A DNA stretch of 64,000 nt from Escherichia phage Paul. Below the pieces are notes generated by a model. It worked only from the letters and a program-made list of their open reading frames with translations. It was not told where the DNA came from and made no database searches. Position numbers and translations under genes: made by a program. How positions within the stretch are numbered: the stretch's first letter is position 1; every line of letters begins with the position of its first letter. Shown one piece after another: positions 46,513 through 49,080 of the stretch. The DNA lies in the sequence record NC_070992.1; one strand, 5' to 3'.

Positions 46513-47169
46513 TTAACTCTCCAAAGTTTTCTTCAGGGCTGCCCATGAGATTGGGTAGAGCTTAGCCATCTCTTCGTCTAGGGATTTAGCAAATACTCGA
46601 ACTTCGTATTGAGCGTGAGAGGAGAGTCGCTGACGACACAACTCAAACCAGCCATACAAAGAACCAGTCCACACCCACTCAGTGATCATCCCCTGAGGTA
46701 GTACAAATCGGGCTTGCTCTGGTGCAATAAACTCAATCAACTTGTCATATGCTGCTAGAGAAGCTTCATATGCATCGTTAATTAACATTAATGCTTCAGC
46801 TCGCTCTCCGTCGATGAGCTGAACCCCTGAACCTGCATGGAGGTCCGAAGGTCTCGCAAAAATCTCTTTAGGGATGAAGACTTCAACTGCTCCATCTTTA
46901 TACCGCCGGGACATTTCGTTCCACGAGAATCCAACCTGATGCTTGCCCAGCTGTCTCGCAATTGCGATAGGTGCTTTGCATCGGAAACTGACTTGCGGGT
47001 GTCGGAATGGGGTAACATGCTTCTCTCTTGCGAGGAAGTTGATGAGACGTTCATCACGTTCATTTAAATCACCTTCACGGGTTACGCCAAAGGAAACTCG
47101 AGCTGCGTTTACTACGCTACGATCACTTCCCATAGCTTCGATTAATGTTGCTTGTAATTGTTCATTCAT
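46513..47169 (-). CDS. thyX: flavin-dependent thymidylate synthase ThyX-like
   Basis: HVTPFRH ... KAPIAIARQ ... NEMSRRY aligns with the ThyX core; the expected RHR signature reads KHQ. Confidence 0.75.
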   Translation of the reverse strand: MNEQLQATLIEAMGSDRSVVNAARVSFGVTREGDLNERDERLINFLAREKHVTPFRHPQVSFRCKAPIAIARQLGKHQVGFSWNEMSRRYKDGAVEVFIPKEIFARPSDLHAGSGVQLIDGERAEALMLINDAYEASLAAYDKLIEFIAPEQARFVLPQGMITEWVWTGSLYGWFELCRQRLSSHAQYEVRVFAKSLDEEMAKLYPISWAALKKTLES

Positions 47170-47184
47170 CCGTGAATTTCCTTA

Positions 47185-47394
47185 TTAATATTCCTTGATT
47201 GGGGATACCACAAAACCACCAAGAGGTGAGGTAAAAGATTTATGTAAGCTTATTTTGCTATAAATCTTTGGAGCCATCTTAAGAGCCTTCTTAAAACGAC
47301 GAGCATCTTTACGAGTAGCAAAATGCTCTGTAACAGGTATAGAATGGTCTTGGTAGATACAATACATCACCGTCCAGTATTTTCCCATAATCAA
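47185..47394 (-). CDS. small protein, paralog family A (69 aa)
   Basis: shares TRxxARxFKK core and C-terminal aromatic/Tyr end with 48871-49486 ORFs. Confidence 0.4.
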   Translation of the reverse strand: MIMGKYWTVMYCIYQDHSIPVTEHFATRKDARRFKKALKMAPKIYSKISLHKSFTSPLGGFVVSPIKEY

Positions 47395-47663
47395 ACACCT
47401 AGTGCAGTAGTTAAAAATGCTTTCAGGTTTGCCTCAGTCTGCATACCAGAGAGGCTGTAGTGTGCACCACTGTTACGGTCAGGTACGACGAAAGCAGGTA
47501 TGCTTCGTACACCATATTTAACAGCTTGTTCACGACCATCTCCTTCAAGGATGTTAATCTCTTCCACTTCTACATCAAACTCCCTAACAACCTTCTCAAA
47601 GGTAGGAGCCATTGCTTTACATGGAGCACACTGATCACTATAAAACTTAATTACTTTAGACAT
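47391..47663 (-). CDS. thioredoxin-like protein
   Basis: CAPC active-site CxxC near N-terminus, thioredoxin-fold length. Confidence 0.65.
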   Translation of the reverse strand: MSKVIKFYSDQCAPCKAMAPTFEKVVREFDVEVEEINILEGDGREQAVKYGVRSIPAFVVPDRNSGAHYSLSGMQTEANLKAFLTTALGV

Positions 47664-47671
47664 ATAAATCC

Positions 47672-47851
47672 TTATGCGGTCAGGATGTGAAGCAGGAATG
47701 GGATAACAACAGCTACGATAACCATGATAGTTGATGCTGTTTGAATCTCACCTTTCTTATCAGGAGTTTCTTCAATAAGCTTACCAGAAGCCCAATAAAT
47801 ACCACCACCAATAAAGATAGCCCAAATACCCCATACGATTGCTGATAACAT
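47672..47851 (-). CDS. small two-TM membrane protein (59 aa), holin-like candidate
   Basis: unlisted ORF; SD AGGA; two hydrophobic helices LSAIVWGIWAIFIGGGIYWA and TIMVIVAVVIPFLLHIL. Confidence 0.3.
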   Translation of the reverse strand: MLSAIVWGIWAIFIGGGIYWASGKLIEETPDKKGEIQTASTIMVIVAVVIPFLLHILTA

Positions 47852-47912
47852 ATATCTATATCCTTATAAATAAGTTCGCCCCACCTCGGGTTAGGAGACA
47901 GGGCGGAGGTTT

Positions 47913-48476
47913 TTAGTAAGACACATCACCACTTGAATGGGACATGTTGCTCTTGACGAAGTAACAATACTTGCCAAGACCTTCATTAATTTCTTGAAGC
48001 ATACTCTGATCGACAGGGTAGGAGGCTAAATCACCATCAAACTCATCCATCTTCTCAATAATACACATCAAGGTCATGCACATATCAGAGAGCATACCAT
48101 CCATATCTAGATCAGCATTCCCCTCTGAGAACCAAGCGTGGGATAGGTAGTTAGCTGCTGTAGCATCCACTTTAACACAGTGGTAACGCATACGTTCAGC
48201 AATACGATCTCCTACTTGTCGTGCGTAATCTTCCAGCTCATCAAACATACCATGAACACCCTGAAATCCTGCACCAGAGACGTTCCAGTGGTAGTTTTTA
48301 GCTTTGATATGCAAGAGTTCCATGTTAGCTTGTAAGCAGCTCAGGATGTGTTCTATGCTGTTTCCACTAATCATGCCTTGCATCGTTTCAAGGCGAGAGA
48401 TTGATAGGTCGGACCGGTCTAACATACTATAGCTGTCACGACCAATATCAGGTAAATCAAAGACATTCTTATGCAT
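47913..48476 (-). CDS. Dps / ferritin-like protein
   Basis: KNYHWNVSGAGFQGVHGMFDELEDYARQVGDRIAERM matches the Dps ferroxidase-helix pattern; start set at ATG 48476 to avoid overlap. Confidence 0.5.
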   Translation of the reverse strand: MHKNVFDLPDIGRDSYSMLDRSDLSISRLETMQGMISGNSIEHILSCLQANMELLHIKAKNYHWNVSGAGFQGVHGMFDELEDYARQVGDRIAERMRYHCVKVDATAANYLSHAWFSEGNADLDMDGMLSDMCMTLMCIIEKMDEFDGDLASYPVDQSMLQEINEGLGKYCYFVKSNMSHSSGDVSY

Positions 48477-48798
48477 TTGGGTTTTCTCCATCAAGTTCAA
48501 CTGAGTTAGCAACGTTACGTGCAATATTATCCATTACCTGCTGGGTAATTACGATGCAGTTCTGTGGGTCTACTGACTTAGAACGCCCCATTTCAGGGTC
48601 ATACACCTTAACACGCTTAGCAGTTGAACCTGTAACCTGAAGAACCTTCAATAGATATCCCTGATTACCAATAGACCAAGCAACAACATCACGATTCTTG
48701 ATAAAGCGACCAAGCATATCACGATGATAAAACTGTTGCATCACCTTGGATTTTGTAATCTCTTCAGTGGGCGGGGCCACTTTACTCAAATCTAACAT
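48469..48798 (-). CDS. hypothetical protein (109 aa)
   Basis: ORF; near-match AAATGTATA motif about 40 nt upstream at 48838-48846. Confidence 0.35.
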   Translation of the reverse strand: MLDLSKVAPPTEEITKSKVMQQFYHRDMLGRFIKNRDVVAWSIGNQGYLLKVLQVTGSTAKRVKVYDPEMGRSKSVDPQNCIVITQQVMDNIARNVANSVELDGENPNA

Positions 48799-48870: not shown

Positions 48871-49080
48871 TTAGTAGTAAACTACTTTAGACATAAAAGA
48901 ACCCGAGCTAGGGTCTTCGTACCAGCGATGAATGTCAGCACTTTTAACAGTTCCTATTAGAGCTTTCATATTCTTTTTAGCGACACGAGCCTCTTTGCGA
49001 GTGTTAAACAGTTTGATATTATCTTTACCTAAGTGTTGTTTCTGTTCCCAGACAACACGAATAGCCCACATCTTTTTCAT
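48871..49080 (-). CDS. small protein, paralog family A (69 aa)
   Basis: tandem paralog; ATGA-type junctions. Confidence 0.4.
   Translation of the reverse strand: MKKMWAIRVVWEQKQHLGKDNIKLFNTRKEARVAKKNMKALIGTVKSADIHRWYEDPSSGSFMSKVVYY

Follow-up and report, generated by a model that had tools for sequence, protein, structure and literature searches.

The genome of Escherichia phage Paul (NC_070992.1) encodes, on the minus strand of the 64,000-nucleotide stretch that we analysed (hereafter the window), a 187-residue protein that, by every available test of sequence and predicted structure, is a Dps-type mini-ferritin. Its gene (47913..48476) overlaps the end of a small partner gene, gp68, and lies among middle genes concerned with replication and nucleotide metabolism. 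By analogy with solved Dps proteins, we consider it probable that the product is a dodecameric cage of the replication phase, which would oxidise Fe2+ with H2O2, store Fe3+ and suppress Fenton chemistry during phage replication. Iron sequestration with protection from oxidants appears to be its most plausible role.

Family membership and predicted fold

A first-pass annotation of this DNA had noted a Dps helix pattern in the central region of the protein, and profile searches place that match far beyond chance. The Pfam family PF00210 (Ferritin-like) aligns to residues 55-109, scoring 31.1 bits where 24.5 is the gathering score (E 2.7e-7). A phmmer search of the PDB sequences returned 36 distinct chains, every one of the Dps family or named Dps-like, the best being M. 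smegmatis Dps2 (E 2.5e-9, residues 52-176 aligned). A profile made from 16 members of the phage clade covered residues ~40-177 and reached 53 Dps sequences in the PDB, including those of E. coli and L. innocua, with a best E of 6e-15.

The AlphaFold2 monomer model, built on a 68-sequence alignment, is a four-helix bundle (pLDDT, the predicted local distance difference test, 87.2; pTM, the predicted template modelling score, 0.75). The helices span residues 41-65, 71-98, 125-150 and 154-176, with a short helix in the B-C loop (107-112), which is a hallmark of Dps, and the model has no fifth, C-terminal E helix of the ferritin type. The best 50 Foldseek matches in the PDB are all Dps or named DPS-like, and canonical Dps chains reach target-normalised TM-scores of up to 0.92 with a root-mean-square deviation (rmsd) down to 1.1 Å. 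The prediction of this fold, which the first-pass annotation had set as a check, is thus of high confidence, and its nearest solved structures all belong to Dps or DPS-like proteins. By analogy with solved members of the family, we would expect twelve subunits to assemble into a cage. We also considered a classical ferritin or bacterioferritin (24-mer, with an intra-subunit di-iron site and conserved ExxH motifs), which we rejected: the sole ExxH of helix A (E53-x-x-H56) is unconserved, H56 being Tyr or Arg elsewhere in the clade, and the best matches in both structure and sequence are Dps proteins and not ferritins.

Homologues were found by tblastn in 135 phage records, 96 of them at full length, mostly from Escherichia Kuravirus and relatives at 80-99% identity. 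The clade also holds the shorter Dps proteins of Grimontviridae, from Salmonella phages SE131 and pSal-SNUABM-01, from Proteus phages of the P59/Privateer type and from Aeromonas phages of the BUCT695/LAh type. Among 1.84 billion cluster representatives searched with a profile, 3358 Dps-like proteins scored at E <= 1e-3 and only 7 clusters at E <= 1e-30, while in the 90%-clustered database the phage clade (125-345 bits) is separated by a gap from bacterial Dps (82 bits or less). Judged from its sequence, the protein belongs to a divergent, phage-specific Dps subfamily, and is neither an orthologue of the host Dps nor a recent capture of a host gene. Among 80 viral contigs none carried Dps fused to a larger protein, and sizes were 125-175 residues except in the Kuravirus type. 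One metagenomic protein, P0124 (1156 residues), gave 20 separate matches to the Dps profile, the best at profile positions 62-97, the ferroxidase helix region, and looks repetitive.

Open reading frame and start codon

A single open reading frame fills the interval exactly, from ATG 48476 to a TAA stop at 47913-47915 (computed mass 21.17 kDa, isoelectric point (pI) 4.69). The Dps-like frame reported in the first-pass annotation, which gave no strand, is therefore real and lies on the minus strand; its attribution to a phage also holds, the surrounding 8 kb being ~94% identical in DNA to Kuravirus genomes (phiEco32-like prolate podophages). The ATG start is favoured because a GGAG lies 9 nt upstream, 12 of 15 aligned homologues have an MH[KN] N-terminus at the equivalent position, the GenBank coding sequence of phiEco32 phi32_67 uses the same ATG, and the orthologue of phage SU10 was identified at 21.2 kDa (PMC4281155). 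A longer frame from TTG 48524 (16 more residues, 203 in total) was rejected, as it overlaps the upstream gene, disagrees with the homologous N-termini and exceeds the SU10 mass, which fits 187 residues. The plus-strand reading frames within the interval (42-79 residues) are without support.

Ferroxidase centre

The His, Asp and Glu residues that the first-pass annotation had likened to a ferroxidase site are present as H63, H75, D79, D90 and E94, together with W64. Residues 55-95 align ungapped to residues 43-83 of E. coli Dps (BLASTP), and MAFFT alignment pairs H63, W64, H75, D79, D90 and E94 with H31, W32, H43, D47, D58 and E62 of L. innocua Dps, and with H51, W52, H63, D67, D78 and E82 of E. 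coli Dps, respectively, so that the ligands are found where the alignment proposed as a check would place them. The numbering of the E. coli reference sequence agrees with the published H51/W52/H63/D67/D78/E82.

Conservation of these positions was followed in two alignments, A1 with 16 sequences of the phage clade down to 48% identity, and A2 with 68 sequences from phages and bacteria, extending to bacterial Dps of 23% identity. All six residues are invariant in A1, and H63, W64, H75, D90 and E94 are invariant in A2 as well. By analogy with the bacterial proteins, the phage Dps would have ferroxidase activity.

Selection and detection in phage preparations

The gene is under strong purifying selection, with pairwise dN/dS of 0.02-0.07 among five Kuravirus orthologues. 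It is also expressed in relatives: SU10 CDS67, a middle gene, was found by mass spectrometry, with 6 peptides and 35.8% coverage, the most peptides among the middle-gene products (PMC4281155), and the Privateer orthologue was likewise detected (PMC7881722).

Since the two detections, in SU10 (6 peptides) and in CsCl-purified Privateer, come from phage preparations of distant relatives, the protein might be packaged in, or bound to the capsid of, these prolate C3 podophages. That a capsid-targeted Dps may exist elsewhere is suggested by three BFVD entries from uncultured phages (A0A6J7XDU5, A0A6J7WPK9 and A0A6J7WIS1; 333-763 residues, named "prohead protease"), in which a Dps-like four-helix-bundle domain is predicted; these models hint that some phages may have Dps as a cargo directed to the capsid, which would recall the ferritin-like cargo of encapsulins. 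A virion role for the C3 podophage protein is nevertheless quite improbable. The SU10 preparation was impure, containing also DNA polymerase, thioredoxin, sigma factor, scaffold and terminase (PMC4281155), and the later cryo-electron microscopy and mass spectrometry study of SU10 reports the ejection proteins inside the head to be gp20-24 and nowhere in its text uses the words Dps or gp67 (PMC9509320). Moreover, the gene lies in the middle/replication module and not in the late structural module, and a cage of ~250 kDa would readily co-purify with phage particles.

Charge, N-terminal extension and the DNA-binding label

The protein is strongly acidic, with 29 Asp and Glu against 14 Lys and Arg per subunit. 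Residues 1-45 have a pI of 4.9, with one Lys and three Arg against seven Asp and Glu, and the C-terminal tail contains a single Lys; on inspection of both termini, the flexible Lys/Arg-rich DNA-binding tail of the E. coli type is absent. Such a tail is a property of E. coli-type Dps and not of all family members. Met accounts for 8.0% of all residues, and Met and Cys are enriched in helices C and D. The acidic N-terminal extension, which is found in the Kuravirus-like clade only, carries the motif S-x-x-R-L-[ED]-x-M, with an invariant R28 and an M32 shared by at least 90% of the clade, and a helix is predicted at residues 25-37 with low confidence (pLDDT 50-67).

These features bear on the possibility that the protein acts chiefly by binding and condensing DNA, coating or compacting phage or host DNA as E. 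coli Dps does in stationary phase. It is called a "DNA binding protein" in phiEco32, in many relatives and in phrog_3636, its gene sits in the replication module, and some Dps proteins with N-terminal helices, such as Lactococcus Dps, bind DNA through them. The pI of 4.69 and the missing Lys-rich tail argue the other way, and the label appears to be inherited; it is probably just the family name and not the outcome of a test. From its composition we do not expect the protein to bind DNA directly, and we consider a primary role in DNA condensation unlikely. The proposal of the first-pass annotation that the protein could protect DNA from oxidative damage should therefore not be read as direct DNA binding, as the protein is acidic and lacks the basic tail.

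The family assignment itself is already known at the level of annotation. The record of phiEco32 (NC_010324) has described phi32_67 (YP_001671812; 98.4% identical to the Paul protein) as a "DNA binding protein" and "member of the Dps family" since its deposit, and the gene appears in the SU10 and Privateer papers. According to the former, CDS67 ("contains a DPS domain") and CDS68 belong to a small set of genes common to all five C3 phages then sequenced (PMC4281155). Other labels differ: one GenBank record names the orthologue "ferric iron binding protein", while that of IME267 is named "integrase", a word that also stands under the match in many other records (e.g. EcoN5, IMEP8, EK5 and YW01).

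Genomic context and the partner gene gp68

The Dps gene belongs to a middle/replication block on the minus strand, whose other genes are given in Table 1 in transcription order, Dps following gp68. It always has primase/helicase and dCTP deaminase on one side and DNA polymerase on the other, with thioredoxin and ThyX as neighbours. Proteus phage P59, Salmonella phage SE131 and Aeromonas phage BUCT695 have Dps at the equivalent place, between dCTP deaminase and DNA polymerase, and there it also borders on thyX, on a complete gene for anaerobic ribonucleotide reductase or on a short open reading frame resembling the NrdD C-terminus.

Table 1 Features of the Dps locus in the window and at related loci
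Feature	Position	Strand	Basis or remark
Dps-family mini-ferritin coding sequence, orthologue of phiEco32 phi32_67 and SU10 CDS67	47913..48476	-	Open reading frame, PF00210, PDB matches, AlphaFold2, Foldseek, dN/dS
Acidic N-terminal extension, codons 1-40	48357..48476	-	Kuravirus-like clade only; alignment A1, composition, pLDDT
Predicted ferroxidase-centre codons 63-94 (H63, W64, H75, D79, D90, E94)	48195..48290	-	End of helix A and helix B; BLASTP, MAFFT, alignments
Shine-Dalgarno GGAG	48486..48489	-	9 nt before ATG, inside 3' end of upstream gene; sequence read directly
Primase/helicase region	52132..53922	-	
Nucleotidyltransferase, 466 residues	50236..51636	-	phi32_73 orthologue
dCTP deaminase	49690..50223	-	
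Three small tandem paralogues	48871..49080, 49080..49289, 49289..49486	-	Upstream of gp68
gp68, 109 residues	48469..48798	-	phi32_68 orthologue, phrog_10984; stop overlaps Dps start by 8 nt
G+C-rich 11-bp hairpin	47877..47905	-	Starts 8 nt after Dps stop; scan; conserved in Kuravirus
59-residue protein	47672..47851	-	Hydrophobic by eye
Thioredoxin	47391..47663	-	
Fourth small paralogue	47185..47394	-	Between thioredoxin and thyX; phiEco32 has only a 15-nt gap there
ThyX	46513..47169	-	
TAATGTAT sites (examples)	46, 9757, 9987, 12844, 24755, 27741, 28495	+	
TAATGTAT sites (examples)	25139, 37574, 43812	-	
gp68 homologues in other loci	L003 3639-3923; L005 3690-3959; L004 2385-2651; L015 4615-4929		
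NrdD C-terminus-like open reading frame	L003 4359-4694; L004 4411-4710		Directly downstream of Dps in Privateervirus and Moazamivirus
145-155-residue protein in the Dps slot	L091 4321-4758; L092 4322-4789; L093 4321-4764		Start/stop-coupled after gp68

The upstream gene, gp68, is a conserved neighbour of Dps in the C3 podophages. From the overlap of its stop with the Dps start, its translation is predicted to be coupled to that of Dps. By tblastn, gp68 accompanies Dps in 15 of 15 C3-podophage loci, the two genes abutting or overlapping in all but Moazamivirus, in which thyX separates them, and homologues of 31-34% identity lie directly upstream of Dps in the Proteus and Aeromonas phages. The gene was found beside Dps in none of 70 other Dps-bearing viral contigs. 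The gp68 product was also detected by mass spectrometry in SU10 (PMC4281155). Its AlphaFold2 model (pLDDT 66) has five strands forming a small beta-barrel, while searches of Pfam and NCBIfam gave no match and those of the PDB no significant one, the best Foldseek match (E 0.013) being to Tudor/KOW/SH3-like barrels.

This setting can also be read in terms of iron supply, the cage capturing host iron for phage or host iron enzymes of dNTP synthesis, or keeping it from the host. Dps cages store iron, and in relatives the gene is directly beside anaerobic ribonucleotide reductase genes or the NrdD C-terminal-like reading frame. In Paul, however, there is no recognisable iron-dependent enzyme between 46000 and 52000, ThyX being a flavoenzyme, and gp68 is without a Cys cluster like that of bacterioferritin-associated ferredoxin. 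The iron capacity of Dps cages is also small, and a partner for iron release was not found, so that we regard a role as iron donor as improbable.

The transcript that carries gp68 and Dps probably ends at the hairpin downstream of the Dps stop, which would act as a terminator or 3' stabiliser. Its RNA fold has an energy of -15.9 kcal/mol, with a z-score of -1.8 in the window, where the T-tract is weak, and of -4.3 to -4.4 in relatives. A functional hairpin is suggested by the related locus L006, in which the stem has a different sequence with perfect pairing followed by a T-run, and by phage ECBP2, in which the stem is lengthened. As for the start of the transcript, matches to sigma70-like promoters in the window are no commoner than in shuffled sequences (13 against 14.8). 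The core of the phage-sigma (gp36-type) promoter, TAATGTAT, occurs 11 times against 2.95 expected, a count reached in 0 of 100 shuffles, and none of the 11 sites is close to the Dps gene. No dedicated Dps promoter can thus be assigned.

Some further genes of the region deserve mention. The four small paralogues (65-69 residues, 26-30% identical) share W5, T27-R28, A31-R32, K35 and a C-terminal Tyr, and the two that were scanned both match phrog_4939. The nucleotidyltransferase has a sub-threshold match to the Pfam PolyA_pol head domain (19.2 against 23 bits) and is annotated elsewhere as CCA-adding-enzyme-like, an annotation despite which ARAGORN found no tRNA genes in the window. Directly downstream of Dps in Privateervirus and Moazamivirus, a reading frame of about 100 residues matches the NrdD C-terminus, with 46-47% identity to Aeromonas phage NrdD, and may be a GrcA-like spare glycyl-radical domain.

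Proposed role in iron and peroxide control

In the mechanism that we favour, twelve four-helix-bundle subunits would form a hollow cage. Each inter-subunit centre would bind two Fe2+, one subunit contributing H63, H75 and D79 and its two-fold partner contributing D90 and E94, next to W64; oxidation of the bound Fe2+ by H2O2 (or O2) would yield Fe3+, to be kept in a mineral core. Both Fenton reagents would in this way be removed from the infected cell, and the replicating phage DNA would be protected along with redox-sensitive enzymes of nucleotide metabolism, namely the flavin-dependent ThyX and thioredoxin and, in relatives, anaerobic ribonucleotide reductase. The main contextual argument for scavenging of peroxide and iron is that Dps adjoins these redox- or oxygen-sensitive genes of dNTP synthesis.

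That a phage should have its own Dps would be understandable, since phages of the phiEco32 type use gp79 to shut off the sigma70 transcription of the host (PMC8948821; PMC12276001), which would block induction of the host dps and catalase genes. These are among the most induced host genes in lytic infection by YerA41 (PMC7354516). An antioxidant role has also been proposed for the Dps genes of gut phages by Benler et al. (PMC8008677).

Several observations weigh against this proposal. The protein scores 35.1 bits against the NCBIfam equivalog of E. coli Dps, NF006975, far below the cut-off of 114, and function can therefore not be carried over as it could between orthologues. In L. innocua Dps the iron-entry pore is lined by three Asp residues, of which D121 is kept as D149 in the phage protein, and D126 and D130 are replaced by P154 and S158 (MAFFT), so that iron uptake could differ; further acidic residues lie near the pore positions in the monomer sequence (D147 and D156), and P154 is part of a clade-specific motif, P154-V155-(D156)-Q157, conserved in the clade at the start of helix D. 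The searchable literature yielded no experiment on any phage Dps. Finally, a gp68 search found three sister-clade metagenomic contigs of 82-90 kb (L091-L093), whose gp68 is 74-77% identical to the Paul copy, with no Dps detectable within ~4 kb on either side of it. The protein that occupies the Dps slot on these contigs is devoid of the ferroxidase ligands, and relatives can apparently do without a ferroxidase centre at this position, over the ~4 kb covered on each side.

The slot protein begins with SSMGRL[ED]xM, and so shares its motif with the N-terminal extension of the Kuravirus protein. In hhalign its match to the clade alignment covers the N-terminal motif and helices A-B, with a probability of 76% (E 2.4e-5), and that to the broad Dps alignment spans the full length but is weak (probability 18%, E 1.3e-3); a search of isolated phages with the 145-residue protein gave no match. 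The slot protein is a Dps that has degenerated, or else a helical protein unrelated to Dps that has the N-terminal module in common, and it hints that this module and the coupling to gp68 have a role independent of iron oxidation.

Such a role could be the conserved one, with the cage or its N-terminal module acting with gp68 in a phage-specific process and iron oxidation being secondary. The co-occurrence of gp68 and Dps in all 15 C3-podophage loci, start/stop-coupled in most, would fit, as would the detection of both products in SU10 and the persistence of gp68 with the SSMGRLxxM-motif protein in L091-L093, where the ligands are missing. Yet the ligands are invariant from the phage's own clade to bacterial Dps at 25% identity, which is hard to explain without catalysis, the case for homology between the L091-type protein and Dps is of moderate strength only, and Grimontviridae keep gp68 with a Dps that has no N-terminal module. 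We therefore consider a non-catalytic role very unlikely. A related proposal is that the Dps cage of the C3 podophages was recruited, with gp68 and the SxxRL[ED]xM module, for a phage-specific task, the candidates being a cage associated with virions or DNA and a protective compartment linked to the replisome, with iron oxidation dispensable in some lineages. It is prompted by the ferroxidase-less protein in the same slot and by the repeated detection of Dps in phage particle preparations, and we give it a small chance of being correct. Control of iron and peroxide by a catalytic cage remains our preferred reading.

The gene call adds nothing new, and the weight of these findings is modest: the gene is conserved, constrained, abundantly expressed and present in every C3-podophage locus examined. 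The group includes therapeutic candidates and is now represented in the BASEL collection. The public labels "DNA-binding protein" and "integrase" are misleading, and the latter could wrongly flag lytic phages as temperate in safety screens for phage therapy. The gp68-Dps pair also makes a simple system in which it can be tested why a virulent phage should have to control iron and peroxide by itself.

Comparison with known Dps proteins

The closest known relatives, phiEco32 phi32_67 and SU10 CDS67, are orthologues of equal length with the same neighbours, at 98.4% and 96.3% amino-acid identity, respectively; phi32_67 has three amino-acid differences from the Paul protein, and phiEco32 is without the phrog_4939 paralogue that Paul carries between the thioredoxin gene and thyX. 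The Dps proteins of Grimontviridae (Salmonella SE131/7-11 type, Proteus Privateer/P59 and Aeromonas LAh/BUCT695) are stand-alone, syntenic and in one clade with that of Paul, but are shorter, with 146-154 residues, and lack the N-terminal extension. Those of other phages, namely Lactobacillus LP65/Semele, Bacillus phage G (gp346), Synechococcus S-SRM01 and the gut "Gratiaviridae", are also stand-alone, but they are distant (28% identity or less, or related by structure only) and have no gp68 neighbour.

Like the bacterial proteins M. smegmatis Dps2 (2Z90/4M35), B. anthracis Dlp-2 (1JIG), B. subtilis MrgA (2CHP), E. coli Dps (1DPS) and L. innocua Dps (1QGH), the phage protein is predicted to be a four-helix bundle with a BC-loop helix, and these five structures superpose on its model with target-normalised TM-scores of 0.76-0.92 and rmsd of 1.1-2.7 Å (Foldseek). 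The ligand set and its spacing, H-x11-H-x3-D-x10-D-x3-E, are identical to those of bacterial Dps, with a Trp beside the first His. In contrast, overall identity to bacterial Dps is only 22-27%, a 40-residue acidic N-terminal extension takes the place of the basic tail, and the pore Asp residues are partly replaced (P154 and S158).

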